A stretch of DNA of 64,000 nt from an uncultured Acidobacteriota bacterium (lineage in GTDB: Bacteria > Acidobacteriota > Terriglobia > UBA7540): contig CAWDSK010000005.1 in NCBI GenBank assembly GCA_963804995.1, positions 1,088,001 to 1,152,000 on the forward strand, in the 5' to 3' direction. Position 1 is the stretch's first letter. Each line of letters opens with the position of its first letter. The position numbers and the translations under genes were made by a program. The notes under the pieces were generated by a model that had not been told where the DNA came from, did no database searches, and saw only the letters and a program-made list of their open reading frames with translations. This document shows positions 1 to 39,491 of the stretch, in pieces.

Positions 1-317
1 CTTCTCGTATATCCGCGACTGGGTAGAGAAGAAGATTCGGTGCCACTTGGCGAGGGCCAGACAACGCCCAGGCTTCGGATGGAAGCGGTGGCGTAAGGAG
101 TGGCTGTATGGCACGCTCGGGCTCTTCCACGAGTACCGCGTGGTCCATCAGTCATCCTCCTGGGCAGCCGCCCCGACCCGATAGGCCCCATAACCCTTGC
201 CGTGAAGTGTGCAGGAACGCGTAGTGCGGGAAATCCGCACGCTACGTGTGATGTGGCGGGAGCTGGAAACGGGGCTCGGAGCTTTCTCGGAGCCGCCGCG
301 CCAGTTCCCGACCCTAC
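1..317 (+). mobile_element. Group II intron, 3' part (copy 1): end of the RT/maturase ORF (stop at 182-184), domains V and VI
   Basis: Positions 1-318 are identical to 39151-39468. Domain V hairpin ACGCGTAGTGCGGGAAATCCGCACGCTACGTGT at about 217-249. Ends ...CCCGACCCTAC (AY 3' end). Confidence 0.93.
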
Positions 318-3300
318 CTCTCTGACGAAGCTCTTTCACCCCGACGATCTGGAAAGAGTAGTGGGGGAACGCCAGCAGACGATTTCACGCGGCGTGCCAT
401 GGGATGCGGAAGTGCGGATACGCGGAAAAGACGGCGACTACCGCTGGTTCATAATCCGTCTCAACCCTCTGCGGGACGAGCAGGGACGCATCCTTCGGTG
501 GTATGGCACAAGTACCGACATCGAGGATCGCAAGCGGGCCGAAGAAACCTTGCGGGGGCAGGCAGATCTTCTCAATCTCACGCACGACGCCATTTTTGTA
601 GCGGATATGGAGGGGGTGATCAAGTACTGGAATCATGGCAGCGAGGAGCGGTACGGCTGGACCGCCGAGCAAGCGGTGGGCACAGTTGTTCACGACCTGC
701 TGAAGACAGTCTTCCCGGCGCCGCTGGAGCAAATCAAAACGGAAGTGATACGTAAAGGTCGCTGGGATGGCGAACTTGTGCATACCAAGAAGGACGGAAC
801 CCGGGTAGTGGTGGCGAGCCGTTGGTCTTTGCAGCGGGACAAGCAAGGCGCGCCAGTTGCCATCCTGGAAACCAACAACGATATCACGGACCGCAAGCGG
901 GCGGAGGAGGCGTTGCGTCGTTTGAACCGCGAACTGCGAGCGATCAGCAACTGTAACCAGATCCTCCTGCGCGCCACTGACGAGCAGAGCTTGCTCGAAG
1001 AAATCTGCCGGATCGTCTGCCAGGAGGCCGGTTACCGCATGGCGTGGGTGGCCTATGCCGAGCACGACGAGGCCAAGAGCGTGCGCCCTGCCGCGTGGAC
1101 CGGGACCGAGGAGGGATATCTCGCAAACCTCGGCATTACTTGGGCCGACACGGAGCGCGGGTGGAGCCCTACCGGGACAGCCATCCGCAGCGGGAAAAGT
1201 TGCTGCATTCAGGATTTCGCCACGGATCCCCGCCTGGCGCCCTGGCGGGAGAGCGTTTTGCAGCACGTTTTTCTTTCCGGCATCGCCCTGCCGCTTAAGG
1301 ACGAACACGCGAGCGCCTTCGGCAGTCTTAGCATTTATTCCGCACAGCCCAACGCTTTTACGTCGGAAGAGATTCGGCTGCTGGAGGAACTGGCTGGCGA
1401 CCTGGCGTTCGGCATCATCACCCTGCGATCGCGGGCCACTGGCGAACGGGCAGAGCTGGCTCTGCGGCAGAGTGAGGCTTATTTAGCGGAATCGCAGAGG
1501 CTGACCCACACGGGTAGTTGGGCTTTGGATTTGGCCAGCGACAAGTATGTCTACGTTTCGGAGGAGGACTTTAGACTTTGGGGATTTGATGCGCAAGAGG
1601 GTTTACCGTCGCGGGAAGCAGTTTTCCGACGAATCCACCCGGAGGATCGGGACAAGATGAGAGCGAGCTTTGAGAAGTCGCTTCGCGAAAAAGTAGATTC
1701 CTCCGACGAGTACAGGATCGTGCTGCCCGACGGAACGGTCAAACATGTTCACACCATCCGCCACCCTGTCCTGAATGGCGCGGGAGACCTCGTTAAATTG
1801 GTGGGCACATCAGTGGATATCACGGAACGCAAACAGGCGGAGGAAGCGCTGCGCGAGAGCGAGACGCGCTTTCGCACCTTTGTGGACCACGCCGCGGACG
1901 CCTTCTTCATCCTGGACTTCGAGCAAGGAACCATTATTGATGTGAACCGGAGCGCCTGCGAGAGCCTTGGTTATACGCGGCAGGAACTGATCGGGACGAT
2001 GGGGCTTGCCTTCGACCAGAACGTGGATCGAGCGGTTACGGAATCGATCGCGGAGCGGACGGCGGCGGGCGAAACCGTGATCGACACGCACTGGCATCAG
2101 CGCAAGGACGGGACGCTGTTCCCTGTGGAAGTACACACCAGCCAGTATTGGCGGGGAGGCCGTCGCTTCCTGCTGAAGGTAGCCCGGGACACCAGTGACC
2201 GTTTGCGGGCCGAGGAAGCGCGCGCCTACCTCGCCTCCATCGTGGAGTCCTCCGACGACGCGATAATCGGAAGATCCATGGAGGGGATCATTCAATCCTG
2301 GAACCGGGGCGCGGAGAGGCTCTATGGGTATACGGCCCAGGAGGCGATTGGCCAGCCGATCACCCTGGTGATTCCACCCGACCGTGCCCAAGAATTCGTG
2401 AGTAGCGACCGCCTCAAACGGGGAGAGCCGATTCAGGAGTTCGAAACCGTTCGGGTGGGGAAAGATGGCCGGCGAATCGATGTGTCAGTCATTATCTCCC
2501 CTATGAAGGACGCCGCCGGTCGCGTGCTCGGCGCCGCGACGGTCGCCCGCGACATCACCGAGCGCAAGCGCGCTCAGGAGGCACTGCGGAGAAGCGAGGC
2601 TTATCTGGCGGAAGGGCAGCGGCTGAGTCACACAAGCAGTTGGGCTTTCGATTTGGCCAGCAACAAGTATATCTACGTTTCGGAGGAAAACTTCCGAATT
2701 TTTGAAATGGATGCACAAGAGGGTCTACCGAACAGGGAAGCGATTTCCCGACTTATCCACCCGGAGGATTGGGACAGGGTGAACGAGGCCTTTGAGAAGT
2801 CGCTCCGCGAAAAAGTAGATGCCTCGAGCGAGTTCAGGATCGTGCTGCCCAGCGGAACGGTCAAACATCTTCAGGCGATCCGGCACCCAGTCCTGAATGA
2901 TGCGGGAGACGTCGTTGAACTGGTGGGTAGCGTGATCGATATTACGGAACGCAAGCGCGCCGAACAAGAGCGCGAGAGGCTGCGCCAACTCGAGGCGGAT
3001 CTCGCGCACCTCGACCGCGTAAGCATGATGGGGGAACTGGCAGCCTCCATCGCCCACGAAGTCAACCAGCCGCTTTCGGGCGTCGTGGTCAACGCCAATG
3101 CCTGCTTGCGTTGGCTGGCGGGAGATTCGCCCAATCTTGACGAAGCCCGGGAGACTGTCCGGCGTATCGTCCGCGACGGGAAGCGGGCGGGAGACGTGAT
3201 CGCCCGCATTCGGGCTCTGGCGACGAAAACAGCCACCACCAAGGAACGGCTGGATATGAACGAGGCCATTCGGGAGGTCGTGGCTTTTGCCCAGGACGAA

Positions 3301-3699
3301 GTCCGCAGGAATCGTGTGACCCTGCGAACCGAATTCGCGCCTGATCTCTCCCTGGTGTGGGGCGATCGAGTGCAGCTTCAGCAGGTGGCCCTTAACCTGG
3401 TCATGAACGCGGTCGAAGCCATGAGCAGCGTGGAAGAGCGGCCGCGAGAGCTGATCGTCAGAACGCAAAACGATGATGCCGGCCAGGTGCGGGTTACCGT
3501 CCAAGACTCGGGGATGGGGCTTGACCCGCAGAGCATGGAACGGATTTTTGATGCTTTCTACACCACCAAGCACGGGGGAATGGGCATGGGGCTCTCGATT
3601 AGTCGTTCCATTATCCAGAATCACGGGGGCAAGCTATGGGCGGTGGCGAATGACGGGCCAGGCATAAGCGTTCAGTTTACTATTCCCAAGTACCAATAG
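318..3699 (+). CDS. Multi-PAS/PAC + GAF sensor histidine kinase (FixL/NodV-like); 3' exon downstream of the intron, true N-terminus lies outside the window
   Basis: Repeated PAS/PAC motifs (HPDD/HPED...DITERK), a GAF segment, H-box ELAASIAHEVNQPL, and N/G boxes (NLVMNAVEA, DSGMG, GMGMGL). The first ~73 aa of ORF 100-3699 are intron read-through. Confidence 0.92.
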
Positions 3700-3708
3700 G
3701 AGTCCCCT

Positions 3709-4338
3709 TTGCCGGAGCCTGACGCATTAGTCTTGGTTGTGGACGACGACGTGTCGGTGCGCGAGGCTTTGGAAGGTTTGATTCGGTCCGCGGGATTGAG
3801 GGCCGAGACCTTTCGCTCGGCGCAGGAGTTTTTGGCTCGCCCGAGGGCCGATGTGCCAAGCTGCTTGGTATTGGATGTTCGGCTGCCGGGTCTGAGCGGG
3901 CTCGAGCTTCAGAAGCGCATGGCCGAGGCCAACCTGGAGATTCCGATTATTTTTATTACCGGCCACGGCAATGTTCCGGCTGCGGTGCAGGCCATGAAAG
4001 CGGGTGCGCAGGAGTTTCTTACCAAGCCCTTCACGGACCGGGACCTGTTAGACGCGATTCAAAAGGCGATAAATTGCGATCGGGTGGCGCGCCGGCATCA
4101 GGCAGAAATGCGCGAGTTGCGCGGCCGGTATGAATCCTTAACGCCGCGCGAACGAGAGGTTATGGAGCTGGTGGTCTCCGGGTTGCTGAATAAACAAGTG
4201 GCCGCTGAACTGGGGACCAGCGTGATTACGGTTAAAATTCAGCGCGGCCAGGTTATGCGCAAGATGCGGGCCGACTCTTTGGCCGACCTGGTGAGAATGT
4301 CCGAGAGCCTGGGGATACGGCGCGTGAAGAAATTGTAG
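3709..4338 (+). CDS. FixJ/NodW-like response regulator (REC + LuxR HTH)
   Basis: VVDDD, LDVRLPG and FLTKPF receiver motifs; LTPREREV...GLLNKQVA...TVKIQR HTH. Confidence 0.93.
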
Positions 4339-4424: not shown

Positions 4425-4814
4425 ATGGCGAAGGTTCCTCTAATTACGGTAGTTGATGACGACGAGTCGGTCCGTGAATCCCTGGACGGTTTATTGAGGT
4501 CCGTGGGGTTTGCGGCGAAGGTATTTGCTTCGGCCGAAGAGTTCTTGAATTCGGACCATCTGAGCGATATCGACTGCCTGTTGCTGGATGTGCGCCTGCC
4601 GGGCATGAACGGGATCGAACTCCACCATCACTTGGTGGCCAATCGCAGTGAGGTACCCGTTATCTTCATCACAGCCCATGGATCTGAGGAAGGGGTGCGC
4701 TCCCAGGCTTTGCGGAACGGCGCGGTGGATTATCTGATCAAGCCACTCAGTGAAGATACGGTGTTGAATGCGGTCCAGAAGGCTCTGAGCGCGAAGCAAC
4801 ATACCCAGGGATAA
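4425..4814 (+). CDS. Single-domain response regulator (REC only)
   Basis: VVDDD, LLDVRLPG, FITAH and YLIKP motifs; 129 aa. Confidence 0.9.
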   Translation: MAKVPLITVVDDDESVRESLDGLLRSVGFAAKVFASAEEFLNSDHLSDIDCLLLDVRLPGMNGIELHHHLVANRSEVPVIFITAHGSEEGVRSQALRNGAVDYLIKPLSEDTVLNAVQKALSAKQHTQG

Positions 4815-4915: not shown

Positions 4916-6394
4916 ATGAGTGACAGAGGCGCTCCAATCTACTTGGTAGACGACGATGTATCGGTGCGGGAATCGGTGGGAAGTCTGATTCGCTCCGCAG
5001 GATTCCGGGCGAAAACGTTCGCGTCGGCGCAGGAGTGTTTAGCCGGCCTGCAAGCTGAACAGCCGAGCTGTTTGGTACTGGATGTGCAGCTCCCGGGGCT
5101 AAGCGGACTCGATCTTCAACAAGAGCTTGCCAAGGCGGATGTGCAACTCCCGATTATTTTCCTGACCGGCCACGGCGACATTCCCATGTCCGTACGCGCC
5201 ATGAAAGCCGGCGCCCTGGAGTTCTTGACCAAGCCCTGTGACGGTGAAGATCTACTGAATGCTATCCGGCAGGGTATCGCTCGTCATCAGGCAGCCCGGC
5301 AGCCAAGTCAAAACCTGGCGCAGCATAGTTTTGACGGCAGCATCGGTGCGAGGGCAGAATCAAGCGATAAACTCGCGCCGGAAAAGCTCTACCTGGGGGA
5401 AGAAATCTGTCGGGAGGCGAACTTCGAAGGCATCGTGGGACAGAGTCCAGCCCTCCGGGAGGTGCTGAAACTCGTCGAAGTGGTGGCGGCAAGCGATTCG
5501 ACCGTGCTCGTGTTGGGAGAGACGGGCACCGGCAAGGAACTCATTGCGCGCGCTATTCACAATCGCAGCCTGCGCAAGCAACGAGGTTTTGTCAAGCTCA
5601 ACTGCGCCGCGGTGCCCAGCGGCTTGCTTGAGAGTGAACTGTTTGGCCACGAGCGCGGCGCCTTCACGGGCGCCATCACGCAAAGGGCCGGGCGGCTCGA
5701 AGTTGCAGATCAGGGTACGCTGTTCCTGGATGAGGTCGGGGACATCCCTTTGGAAATCCAACCGAAACTGCTGCGCGTATTGCAGGAGCGGGAATTCGAG
5801 CGATTGGGCAGTACGCGGACGAAGAAAGTTGACGTTCGGGTCGTGGCGGCAACCCATCGTGCCCTGGAAGAAATGATCGTGGAGAAGCAGTTTCGCCTCG
5901 ATCTCTACTACCGTCTGAATGTTTTCCCCATTCATATTCCACCCTTGCGCGAACGTCCGGAAGACATTCCGCTGCTCGTTTGTCATTTCGTCCGGCAATT
6001 CGCCCAGCGAATGAACAAGACCATTGATGGGATTTCTTGCGACACGATGGAGGCGCTGATTCGATACTCATGGCCGGGGAACATCCGGGAGCTGCAAAAC
6101 GTTATCGAACGATCAGTGATTGTTCACGTAAAAGGGAACCTCTCAGTCAAGCAGAGCTGGCTTGCTCACGAATGCCTCGCCACCGGATCGGCAACAGCGT
6201 CGTCCTTCAGAAAGTCGGTGAGGGAGGAGCGAAAAGTGATTGGCGCGGCCTTGGCCGAGACGCGCGGCCGAGTGTCGGGACCGTTGGGCGCGGCCGCCAA
6301 GCTGGGCATTCCTCCTTCGACTCTGGAATCGAAGATCCGAGCGATGAAGATCAACAAGCATAGCTTCAAGACCTTCAGTGCCGTTCCAAGCTAA
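4916..6394 (+). CDS. Sigma54-dependent transcriptional activator (REC + AAA+ + HTH, FhlA-like C-terminus)
   Basis: Walker [24 protein letters not shown], Walker [15 protein letters not shown]-terminal [12 protein letters not shown]. Confidence 0.93.
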
Positions 6395-9973: not shown

Positions 9974-10027
9974 ACTGCGGGTACCCAGGCTCAAATTTAT
10001 CATTGGGTCGAGGGGTAGCGGCTGAAG

Positions 10028-10269
10028 GTAGTGGTGTCATTTGGAAGTGCCACGGGCGTCCGAAGGTGTGAAAAAATACCATTTTCACCGCTGAGACGCT
10101 GAGACGCGGAGAAATGACCCTTTGTTTTCAAACCTCTGCGCCTCCGCGTCTCCGCGGTGAAAGGTTTGATGGGATTTTTTCACAGCTTCTCCCGCCCGTG
10201 AAGGGTCACGGCCAAGACCCCGATGGATCGGGGCAAGGTCGGCCGTGCCACACCAAATGACACCACTAC
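10028..10269. repeat. Nested miniature inverted-repeat (MITE/REP) composite
   Basis: Perfect 17-bp IR GTAGTGGTGTCATTTGG/CCAAATGACACCACTAC. Inside: a GTGCCACGGGCGTCC..CGCCCGTG..GGCCGTGCCAC element, interrupted by GAAGGTGTGAAAAA..TTTTTCACAGCTTC (10062-10189, TCC duplicated), which contains a TTCACCGC..GCGGTGAA palindrome. Confidence 0.85.
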
Positions 10270-10328
10270 ACGGAAATTCAGGCGAAGGAAGACGGCAAGG
10301 GATGCTTTGACTCAAGGGGTTTGGCGCA

Positions 10329-36709: not shown

Positions 36710-37079
36710 AGCAGTTCTCCTATTCAGACTGGCCCGTTGGACGGAACTCCCATGCAGGTCCATTTAGGTTGAGTTCCCCGATGCCGGGGGTCGCTTTTAA
36801 GGATGCCGTGAGGGTGCTGTGATACCCGGAGATTGGTTAGAAATTGAAAGCGCCAGGGTGTCATTGATGAGGACAGCCGCGCCCTTGTACGCCGAGCGCG
36901 CCAAGATTGACAGAGAAGTGTAGTTATCAAGGATCACAAAATCAACTGGAATCTCGCCCGCTTGTGGTATATTCCGGCCGGCTCAAGGACCTGTCGCCGC
37001 GAGGCATTCCTGTAAGTCGGGTGTCTCAGTTTCCGCCATCGCCTAAGAAACAGGCTTCAATATCAATTCGCCAGCGACA

Positions 37080-37511
37080 GGCGCCCCAATACGGGTTCGC
37101 CGTCGCCATCCGCTGGACTAAAGCTCTGACCTCCGAATTCGCTGGCGGCCGACCCCCACTTTTCCGCTGTGAAATCTTGGCCCAATAGACTCGGAAACCC
37201 ATTCGCTGCCAACCGACAACCGTGTCACCGTTCACCAAGTGCAAGGCCTGTCGCCAAGGGGCCCAGATTCGGGAAAGCACGACCCAAAACAATCGGTCCT
37301 TCCTCTGCAGTCTCGGCACTCCCTTCCTTCTCTTGAGTACTCCCAGCCGTTGTCGCAAAGCCAGATTCTCCAGAGCCAAGTCACGGCGCTCTCTAAGAGC
37401 GGCAATTATGAAAATGGCCAGCCATCGCAGTGTCACGATCATGGGATGGAGTGTGGAGGTAACGACCTGAAGAAGCAACAGATTTCGAGCTGACGGAGTT
37501 TTGGCGATGGA
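37080..37511 (-). mobile_element. Truncated IS3/IS481-like (integrase-core type) element: left end and transposase N-terminus (ATG 37442)
   Basis: LALENLALRQRL..DRLFWVVLSR..DTVVGW..GFRVYW..GGRP..RMATANPYWGA. With the intron removed, the end reads TGTCCATCGCCAAAACTCC on the minus strand. Confidence 0.75.
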
Positions 37512-39467
37512 GTGTGTCCAGCAAAGGCTGGTATGTTCAGTGGGAGTTAGTCCCACCAAGGCAAGAGTCAGGAGCCTTGTAGCTTGGGTCGCATCCGTGG
37601 AGGAAACGAAGCGGATGAAGCTGACCGACAAAGCCATCCAAGGGATGGTGAGCGAGTCACCGGGCCGTAACGCAAGTGAACCCATAGGTGGCCTCGACAA
37701 AAAAATAGATCCGGAGGCCGAGCCCTCTCCTTCGGGGCGAAGGCAGCATGGCATGACGTGGGCTGACCGAGACGACATGTCACTCCGGCGGGGTGGTAGG
37801 GGCAGCACGGTGGCAAGGGCATGTCAAGCAACTGGAGAAACCGTCCTCGTCCCATCGAGAGATCGGTGGAGCAGGGTAGGCCGTATAACCGGAGACAACG
37901 GGAAATCGGCTGACGGCGAGACGGTGGCGGTTAGGCTCGAAGTAGCGACGAAGTGGGGTAACGCCCATGGAGCGAAGGGGCCTTGCTGCACAGCAAGTCT
38001 TGGCCAACATGGGAGGCAGGGGTGAAATGATAAAAGCGCCCTTTAAGCTGCAAGACCTGCGGCGAAGACTTTACGTCAAGGCGAAGGCTGAACCGACTTG
38101 GCGATTCTGGGGGTTGTATGTCCACGTCTGCAAACGAGAAACTCTCTGGGAAGCGTATCAGCTAGCTAAGGAGAACAAGGGAGCCCCAGGAGTAGATGGG
38201 GTCACGTTCCAGGCAATCGAGGCTGAAGGCTTGCAGGGATTTCTCGAACAGCTTCGCGAGGAGCTGGTGCAGCGGAGATATCGACCTCGACGGCTGCGGA
38301 AGGTAGGGATTCCGAAGGAGGGCGGAAAGGTTCGCCAACTTTCGATTCCTTGCATTCGCGACCGAGTGGTCCAGGGAGCGTTGAAGCTGATCCTGGAACC
38401 GATCTTTGAGGCCGATTTCCAACCGGGATCGTTTGGCTACCGGCCGAAGAAGTCAGCCCACGCTGCGATTCAACGCGTCTCGGAGGCAATCGTGCGGCAC
38501 ATGACCTTTGTCGTTGATCTCAACTTGCGTTCCTACTTCGATACGGTTCGACATTCCCTCGTACTGGAGAAGGTGGCACGGCGAGTGAACGACACCGAGG
38601 TCCTAGGGCTGCTCAAACTGCTGCTGAAGGCGTCGGGGAAGCAGGGTGTTCCGCAAGGCGGGGTGATTTCGCCCTTGCTCAGTAACGTGTACCTCAATGA
38701 GGTGGACAAGATGCTGGAAAAGGCGAAGGAAGTCACCCGCGAGGGGCGGTGGATGAACGTCGAATATGCCAGATTCGCCGATGATCTGGTGGTTCTGGTG
38801 AACGCTCATCCCCGGCAGGCCTGGCTTCGCAAGGCAGTGGAAAAGCGGCTACGGGAGGAGTTGGCCAAGCTGCAGGTTGAGGTGAACGAGGAGAAAAGCC
38901 GGAGGGTGGATCTTCAGCAAGGAGAGAGTTTCGGATTTCTGGGGTTTGAGTTCCGTCGCATCCGCAGTCGGCGGGGCCGATGGATGCCGCTGCGTACGCC
39001 GCGGGGCAAGAAGCGGACGGCATTGCTACGCAAGCTCAAGCTAGTTTTCCGGAGCTATCGCTCTCAGCCTGTGAGGGGGTTGATCGAGCAGATCAATCCC
39101 ATTCTGCGCGGCTGGGTGAACTACTTTGCGGTCGGGCACTCCAGCCGGTGCTTCTCGTATATCCGCGACTGGGTAGAGAAGAAGATTCGGTGCCACTTGG
39201 CGAGGGCCAGACAACGCCCAGGCTTCGGATGGAAGCGGTGGCGTAAGGAGTGGCTGTATGGCACGCTCGGGCTCTTCCACGAGTACCGCGTGGTCCATCA
39301 GTCATCCTCCTGGGCAGCCGCCCCGACCCGATAGGCCCCATAACCCTTGCCGTGAAGTGTGCAGGAACGCGTAGTGCGGGAAATCCGCACGCTACGTGTG
39401 ATGTGGCGGGAGCTGGAAACGGGGCTCGGAGCTTTCTCGGAGCCGCCGCGCCAGTTCCCGACCCTAC
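37512..39467 (+). mobile_element. Full-length group II intron (copy 2), 1956 nt
   Basis: Starts GTGTG, ends CCCTAC; RT ORF in domain IV; domain V at about 39367-39399; 3' boundary supported by divergence from copy 1. Confidence 0.92.
38027..39334 (+). CDS. ltrA: Group II intron reverse transcriptase/maturase, no endonuclease domain
   Basis: GAPGVDG, IPKEGG..RQLSIP..DRVVQ, SFGYRP, PQGGVISPLLSN, RFADD, FLGF, domain X GWVNYF. Confidence 0.95.
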   Translation: MIKAPFKLQDLRRRLYVKAKAEPTWRFWGLYVHVCKRETLWEAYQLAKENKGAPGVDGVTFQAIEAEGLQGFLEQLREELVQRRYRPRRLRKVGIPKEGGKVRQLSIPCIRDRVVQGALKLILEPIFEADFQPGSFGYRPKKSAHAAIQRVSEAIVRHMTFVVDLNLRSYFDTVRHSLVLEKVARRVNDTEVLGLLKLLLKASGKQGVPQGGVISPLLSNVYLNEVDKMLEKAKEVTREGRWMNVEYARFADDLVVLVNAHPRQAWLRKAVEKRLREELAKLQVEVNEEKSRRVDLQQGESFGFLGFEFRRIRSRRGRWMPLRTPRGKKRTALLRKLKLVFRSYRSQPVRGLIEQINPILRGWVNYFAVGHSSRCFSYIRDWVEKKIRCHLARARQRPGFGWKRWRKEWLYGTLGLFHEYRVVHQSSSWAAAPTR

Positions 39468-39491
39468 CACCGCACTCCAATGTTGCTGATT

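Follow-up and report, generated by a model that had tools for sequence, protein, structure and literature searches.

A group II intron within a sensor histidine kinase gene of an uncultured Acidobacteriota bacterium: a full-length product requires splicing

Group II introns are known from bacterial host genes, recA of Geobacillus and a heat-shock operon of Azotobacter being cases that appear by title in the reference list of PMC4424553, and introns outside class C can enter coding sequences (PMC8919778). According to Waldern et al. (PMC7306698), important genes are interrupted only occasionally and signal transduction is among the top five categories of neighbouring genes. Kinases are among the intron neighbours listed in the supplement to that work, in a table that is silent on which genes are interrupted. 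A search of the open-access literature by title and abstract brought up no paper dealing with such an intron in a gene for a histidine kinase or two-component sensor.

The closest described systems share different traits with the locus presented here. The introns in dnaN, nrdJ and apcD of Trichodesmium (PMC4143802) likewise reside in host genes that need splicing for a full-length product; splicing is seen there in RNA reads, whereas it is predicted here for an insertion that is recent. RmInt1 has entered oxi1 and a second oxidoreductase gene (PMC5894124), which provides the parallel of an IS-homing intron that reaches host genes via a similar IBS and is polymorphic at strain level; in our case the host gene encodes a sensor histidine kinase. 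RmInt2 of Sinorhizobium meliloti GR4 (PMC4615759) is, like the intron studied here, endonuclease-less and targets IS inverted repeats (those of ISRm17); it tolerates a short EBS2/IBS2 interaction, as the present intron may too. It belongs to class D by its encoded protein (IEP) and uses another IS, and the hit on a look-alike site in a regulatory gene concerns the present case. The class F introns of group g2 (B.th.I3, Mx.xa.I1, W.e.I5, Sg.ce.I1 and Ma.sp.I2; Toro and Martinez-Abarca 2013, PMC3552965) encode an RT-X protein without endonuclease, for which the motif FADD is the stated mark of the group, and have sizes of 430-447 aa and 1,970-2,006 nt in Table S2 of that source. The present intron is similar in protein type, in the FADD motif and in size (435 aa, 1,956 nt), whereas its lineage forms a branch of its own and targets an IS terminal repeat.

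The window, i.e. the whole stretch of 64,000 nucleotides that was analysed, corresponds to positions 1088001-1152000 of contig C5 in a genome of 7.55 Mb in 9 contigs (G000). Coordinates without prefix count from the first base of the window. The interrupted gene and the intron copy within it (copy 1) consist of the following parts:

C5:1085799-1086361, plus strand, upstream of the window: kinase exon 1, 563 nt, with a DUF4118 membrane domain and the start of a PAS domain (Pfam).
C5:1086362-1088317, plus strand: intron copy 1 as a whole, 1,956 nt, 5' end at window position -1638 (100% in a blastn search of the genome with copy 2).
1..317, plus strand: 3' part of intron copy 1 (100% identity to copy 2 across 1,956 nt).
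318..3699, plus strand: kinase exon 2, 3,382 nt, with the IBS3 base C at 318, the rest of the first PAS domain, further PAS domains, GAF, HisKA and HATPase_c (Pfam, joined frame and G018 ortholog; the H-box region is seen).

A preliminary description of the window had proposed that copy 1 ends at 317 and is followed directly by bases encoding SLTKLFHPDD from the middle of a PAS domain. This is what the DNA reads: the last bases before the 317/318 junction are CCCGACCCTAC, and from 318 on the sequence is C TCT CTG ACG AAG CTC TTT CAC CCC GAC GAT. It had further been predicted that the intron starts about 1640 nt upstream of the window and that the preceding exon ends near GAAGGA. The start was found 1,638 bases before the window, and positions C5:1086356-1086361 are exactly GAAGGA, after which GTGTGTCCAGC begins at window position -1638; the bases on the 5' side of copy 1 finish in GGCGAAGGA. 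When the 1,956-nt intron is removed, exons 1 and 2 yield one open frame of 1,314 codons without internal stop or frameshift, which reads A-K-D-S-L-T-K across the join and thereby agrees with the anticipated in-frame K-D-S splice that leaves the kinase intact. The junction lies at residue 188, and the first PAS domain spans residues 145-256 in the intron-less ortholog (Pfam), so this domain is split by the intron. It is thus confirmed that the intron interrupts a sensor kinase gene, and formation of the full-length product requires splicing. The earlier idea that a full-length kinase depends on removal of the intron is supported by the in-frame join together with the intron-less orthologs described below.

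The gene encodes a FixL/NtrB-like sensor histidine kinase with multiple PAS domains. HisKA and HATPase_c in exon 2 score above the Pfam cut-off and lie 3' of the sensor domains, and response regulator genes begin at 3709. FixL proper is not matched, as the NCBIfam equivalog scored 374.4 bits against a cut-off of 850. Three regulator genes, recognized by domain matches and syntenic in the related genome G018, follow the kinase:

3709-4338, plus strand: FixJ-like response regulator.
4425-4814, plus strand: receiver-only response regulator.
4916-6394, plus strand: sigma-54 type response regulator.

The sensor had been suggested to stand at the head of a stress island. This holds for the four-gene block of kinase and regulators. 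It does not hold for the stress cluster, where ftsH, rhomboid, P-type ATPase and Usp genes are located upstream on the same strand; the kinase gene is in the middle of a cluster with genes for FtsH, rhomboid, P-type ATPase, Usp, Hsp20 and LigD, which is syntenic in G018. Promoter and terminator scans gave matches no commoner than in shuffled sequence.

Alignment with intron-less orthologs, which the preliminary description had called for, gave the same junction in G018 and in all four metagenome loci found. With exon 1 as query, the 28 other genomes of the genus, many of them incomplete, contained one close ortholog (G018, 93%) and three weak matches. The G018 gene is a single frame of 1,194 aa with 84% amino acid identity to the joined kinase over 1,193 columns and encodes A-K-D-S-L-T-K at the junction just as the joined exons do. 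Its blastn pieces stop and restart at the adjacent bases 605996 and 605995, exactly flanking the intron site, while matches of G018 to the intron itself are short only. A search with the motif at the end of exon 1 returned the four metagenome loci, two of which look alike in the compared part and one of which is just 88% identical, plus one genome locus that is the G018 stretch; all five run into exon 2, and the intron is present at the kinase site in none of these five. DNA contigs from two of four sequencing runs, representing relatives and not this strain, also skip the intron at this position. Colinearity of the kinase flanks with G018 extends over ~20 kb, and GC content in the 18 kb that lead up to the intron and reach into it is 0.55-0.61, close to the 0.58 of the genome. 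We regard the insertion into the kinase gene as recent and strain-level. The dN/dS ratio between the kinases of G000 and G018 is 0.29-0.32 across three segments, indicating purifying selection on the kinase before the insertion, the time to which this ratio refers. A 121-residue repeat of the G000 protein does not occur in the G018 protein.

The 3' part of copy 1 contains the following elements:

1..184, plus strand: end of the RT/maturase ORF of copy 1, without endonuclease domain (ORF L001:16817-18184).
217..249, plus strand: domain V hairpin with a putative CGC catalytic triad at 218-220 (fold of the last 130 nt; triad assigned by position).
254..317, plus strand: domain VI, in which the A at 311 (7 nt from the end) is unpaired; the intron terminates here in AC (fold; left boundary approximate).

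All six full copies of the intron in the genome have the ends GTGTG…AC, in agreement with 5' GUGYG and 3' AY. Domain I is recognized in copy 2 by an Rfam RF02003 match at 37538-37675 (125.9 bits, cut-off 49). No Rfam family for domains V and VI exceeded the cut-off in the gathering scan, and these two domains are assigned by folding. The RT/maturase ORF lies in domain IV and is matched by TIGR04416 (363.9 bits, cut-off 300), RVT_1 and GIIM; Pfam gave no HNH match indicative of an endonuclease domain. The RT5 motif reads ARFADDLV. In a tree of 16 rows, the encoded protein groups with B.th.I3 (49% identity) with support of 100/100 and separately from the g1 and g3 references, and within this clade it forms its own branch with introns from Bradyrhizobium and Cupriavidus plasmids (69-71% identity). 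We therefore regard the intron as a probable endonuclease-less class F (g2) element, in a tree whose references comprised one named g2, two g1 and two g3 members and none from classes C, D and E or from g4. Class C (IIC) was considered and rejected on three grounds, namely a covarying IBS1 of 6 nt, a site in coding sequence or an IS repeat, and the lack of any terminator-like site ending at the intron junction in the terminator scan.

A second intron copy within the window allowed the exon-binding sites and the usual target to be traced:

37074..37511, minus strand: left-end remnant of a 1.3-kb IS with rve integrase (86% over 438 nt to C1:139952-140389).
37512..39467, plus strand: intron copy 2, 2 nt inside the IS terminal inverted repeat (100% to copy 1 over 1,956 nt; Rfam RF02003).
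37698..37701, plus strand: CAAA as candidate core of EBS2, opposite TTTG at exon positions -12 to -9 (weak; several registers possible).
37727..37739, plus strand: Id3 hairpin loop with delta C at 37727, EBS1 TCCTTC at 37728-37733 and EBS3 G at 37739 (invariance and covariation).
38027..39334, plus strand: RT/maturase of copy 2, 435 aa, with FADD motif (RVT_1, GIIM; TIGR04416).
39468..39469, plus strand: CA, with which the IS inverted repeat closes and which the intron has displaced; the C is IBS3.

The previously proposed EBS1 of copy 2, TCCTTC at 37728-37733, indeed pairs at five of six positions with its exon GATGGA, and the C that had been noted next to the 3' end of both copies is present at 318 and 39468. 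In the kinase gene the pairing of exon and EBS1 comprises six of six Watson-Crick pairs. EBS1 varies with the 5' exon, with five variants among 12 introns; cognate combinations pair on average at 5.8 of 6 positions (n=12) and non-cognate ones at 3.9 (n=48), a difference that argues for pairing beyond chance, in a set whose rows are not independent as 5 of the 12 stem from G000. Examples of covariation are ACTTTT with AAAAGT in G003 and TTCCGT with ACGGAA in G022; intron L045 fell outside the search pattern and was left out of the scoring. EBS3 G and delta C occur in all 12 scored introns, with no variant pair among them, and the first base of the 3' exon is C at all five G000 sites as well as at 7/7 intact 3' ends in close relatives. 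The 6-nt EBS1-IBS1 pairing and the EBS3-IBS3 pair accord with exon recognition of the IIB type. At the kinase site, EBS2 and IBS2 may form about four pairs in an uncertain register. In G013 and G022, four to five candidate EBS2 pairs from a variable loop change together with the exon, other registers scoring equally well. An alternative EBS2, GCCGAG, pairs at six of six positions when wobbles are counted; it was discarded as it is invariant while exons vary and is located within a stem.

The terminal inverted repeat of the 1.3-kb IS is the likely usual target of this intron. The 438 nt upstream of copy 2 are homologous to an empty site (C1:139952-140389) and to sites in several relatives, and the homology reaches two bases beyond the point of insertion. 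These 438 nt form the left end of an IS with a weak rve/HTH transposase match. In L062, L063 and L064 the element is complete, with a length of 1,301-1,306 nt and the terminal repeats TGTCCWTCGCCAAAAC as a pair. The genome contains six full intron copies at five sites, 99.8-100% identical, plus a 92% fragment, and this degree of identity indicates recent spread. Three of the five sites match the IS inverted repeat; at copy 2 the 438 nt of homology demonstrate this, and for the sites on C6 and C1 the IS identity is deduced from their match to the repeat and from a partner repeat at a distance of 2.3 and 3.9 kb, respectively. G001 carries the intron at the same IS end, while relatives carry the empty repeat. 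The position of the intron two bases inside the repeat accounts for an A at +2 at four of five G000 sites and at six of seven intact 3' ends in relatives. The upstream flanks shared by copy 2, C1:140389 and G001, in combination with dissimilar downstream flanks, suggested exon shuffling between copies; the IS end explains this pattern. GC skew at the six sites was weak and mixed and did not reveal a strand bias toward the replication fork.

The kinase site and the IS repeat have 13 consecutive bases in common (-12 to +1), with mismatches at -13 and +2. Under a fourth-order Markov model 0.9 such 13-mers are expected per genome, and three empty ones are present, one of them an IS end and two not. 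We accordingly regard the kinase site as a chance look-alike of the IS repeat. The fifth site is a poorer look-alike within higB, where the intron lies in the sense direction, in frame and in the same phase as in the kinase; exon 2 of higB begins at position 19 of the Pfam model, preceded by 17 codons and a split codon.

The explanation that we consider probable is that an active class F (g2) intron which homes to IS tips recently hit the look-alike site in the kinase gene, that spliced kinase is still made and that the arrangement arose as a by-product when the intron spread and did not evolve as a switch. The endonuclease-less intron would have its home two bases from the tip of the IS, in the terminal inverted repeat, where its ribonucleoprotein would recognize GAWGGA via EBS1, a T-rich stretch via EBS2 and the C via EBS3. 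With the 13 matching bases in place, reverse splicing in the sense direction into the coding region of the first PAS domain probably occurred recently, and on the basis of group II chemistry (PMC4424553) the same base pairs could guide precise lariat splicing from the kinase mRNA. Some full-length kinase should therefore persist, probably less than from an intron-less allele: three introns, Ll.LtrB, EcI5 and BhI1, reduce host mRNA (PMC6003770), and splicing of RmInt1 is reported to be very low in its natural host (PMC5894124). Unspliced mRNA would encode a truncated membrane protein of 358 aa, consisting of the membrane domain, half of the PAS domain and 171 intron-derived residues, without the kinase domains. 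An internal restart for exon 2 at the in-frame GTG at window position 100 found no support, as the distance of the adjoining AGGAG suits an ATG at 108 that is out of frame.

The same published data on poor splicing and lowered host mRNA lend some weight to the view that the insertion arose in the way just described but splices at a very low level in vivo, so that the allele is effectively a knock-out of a dispensable accessory kinase and heading for decay. The limited occurrence of the gene, with a close exon 1 ortholog in one of the 28 other, often incomplete, genomes, fits an accessory role. A paralogous kinase at C5:1043481-1046367, 44 kb upstream, with 78% amino acid identity over 571 residues, is frameshifted before HisKA; it is on this account not a sure back-up for the interrupted kinase, and loss within the family may be tolerated. 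Against this stand the 1,314 codons free of decay, although little time has elapsed, and the recent spread to six copies, which needs splicing from some transcript by an intron whose kinase copy equals copy 2. In Trichodesmium, moreover, 17 introns are reported to splice in 10 host genes (PMC4143802). We consider such a knock-out unlikely and prefer the by-product of spread with continued splicing.

Far less plausible is co-option of the intron as a condition-dependent switch, in which the efficiency of splicing would control kinase output during stress and ribosomes reading on from exon 1 would couple translation to the intron's RT. The sense orientation, the in-frame join upstream of all catalytic domains, the stress-type neighbours (Usp, Hsp20, LigD and FtsH) and the second copy in the same phase in higB might be read in this way. 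So might the frame from exon 1, which continues through 171 intron codons before it meets its stop, one base short of the RT start codon; a sense frame is open for that long in 74 of 20,000 base shuffles. This frame is open in G000 and G001, but in G007, G013 and G003 stops interrupt it (the first at nt 254, 251 and 23), and its conservation as a family trait was rejected. A precise in-frame join is, furthermore, automatic for any sense insertion, the kinase copy is unchanged from the mobile copy, and the insertion is found in none of the five loci from relatives. A wider version, in which the two-component stress sensor is conditional on the ribozyme, the copies in the kinase gene and higB couple host translation to the maturase and the kinase gene additionally serves as donor for spread upon operon induction, is equally improbable. 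Nothing in the present data favours a switch. It is scarcely credible that misassembly of two identical repeats produced the junction, or that only some members of the sampled population carry the intron. Copies 1 and 2, separated by 39 kb, are indeed direct repeats of 1,956 nt without any difference, and among 23 sequencing runs, none listed as RNA, no run contained half or more of the kinase's words; yet the flanks belong to one gene and share the ~20 kb of colinearity with G018, the intron sits exactly at an IBS1/IBS3 match that an assembler would not select, and the assembly consists of 9 long contigs.

As a recent ectopic insertion the event is of a published kind, both for host genes and for IS ends, and constitutes neither a new mechanism nor a new control system. 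Its value is that of a clean natural case for the cost of a group II intron to a bacterial regulatory gene, given that alleles with and without the intron share 90-94% DNA identity and that the genome itself reveals the target rules. It also adds a class F (g2) example of IS-tip homing with spill-over into host genes. For annotation the locus is a trap, as the one interrupted gene appears as two ORFs of 358 and 1,199 aa.

The first 511 nt of the group II intron are free of stop codons in the phase used at both its kinase and its higB sites, and the first in-phase stop lies one base ahead of the start codon of the intron-encoded reverse transcriptase (RT). A sense frame open over this length arose in 74 of 20,000 base shuffles. 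The stretch is open in the source genome, G000, and in G001; it is closed in G007, G013 and G003. The features concerned are:

Window 37512-38029 (copy 2) and L001:16362-16879 (copy 1, kinase locus): open read-through stretch of the intron
G000:C4:160357-162312 (L042:3357-5312), - strand: intron copy within a higBA pair, in its higB-like toxin gene

The insertion into the higB-like gene is in sense direction and in frame, and judged from this arrangement splicing would be required for the toxin and not for the antitoxin. Among the papers returned by a literature search, none dealt with such an interrupted toxin gene, as judged by title and abstract.

Copies 1 and 2 (window 317 to 37512) are identical direct repeats separated by 39 kb, and recombination between them would remove the second kinase exon, the regulators and the intervening stress genes. 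Two further features were noted:

G000:C5:1043481-1048933, 44 kb upstream: paralogous kinase-regulator block
Window 10027-10273 (approximate), between the ABC-3 and Usp genes: repeat element of 130-250 nt

The kinase of the paralogous block carries a frameshift immediately before HisKA, which is either real or an assembly error. The short element, which is REP- or MITE-like, recurs in dozens of places on most G000 contigs.

A genome-wide search of G000 for the insertion sequence (IS) terminal repeat, in which only empty repeats and no intron-occupied ones could show up, returned 15 empty repeat-like matches, seven of them altered at the bases read by EBS1, the intron motif pairing with the 5' exon (TGTCG, TGTGG or TGTGC replacing TGTCC). 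Such variants are frequent in G022 and G023, and may represent IS ends that evade the intron. IS-type repeats also bound a longer stretch:

G000:C1:27122-31044 (L041 from 5122): 3.9 kb flanked by two IS-type repeats

It contains one hypothetical gene and a 467-aa gene whose CxxxCxxC motif makes its product look like a radical-SAM enzyme. With no long transposase frame within it, the stretch is possibly a non-autonomous cargo element.

Derivatives and a tandem of the intron were also found:

G000:C5:1233825-1234321: 3' fragment of an older copy (92% identity)
G001:C230:10866-11592 (L007): intron at the same IS end, most of the RT gene lost internally
G000:C6:293628-297539 (L040:3628-7539), - strand: two full copies, head to tail without spacer

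The 5' side of the fragment was severed by an integrase-type insertion sequence. The G001 intron retains both ends despite its internal loss, and an ORF-less derivative therefore exists. At least two further group II families occur genome-wide in G000, one with about 38 RT matches (near 30% identity, YADD) and another with a single g3-like copy (C1:97919). The tandem copies differ by one base and, in antisense orientation, cut into the end of a reading frame for a GntR-family regulator. The second copy has the end of the first as its 5' neighbour, a sequence without a match to EBS1, and such an arrangement points to recombination with circular intron DNA, duplication or an assembly error.
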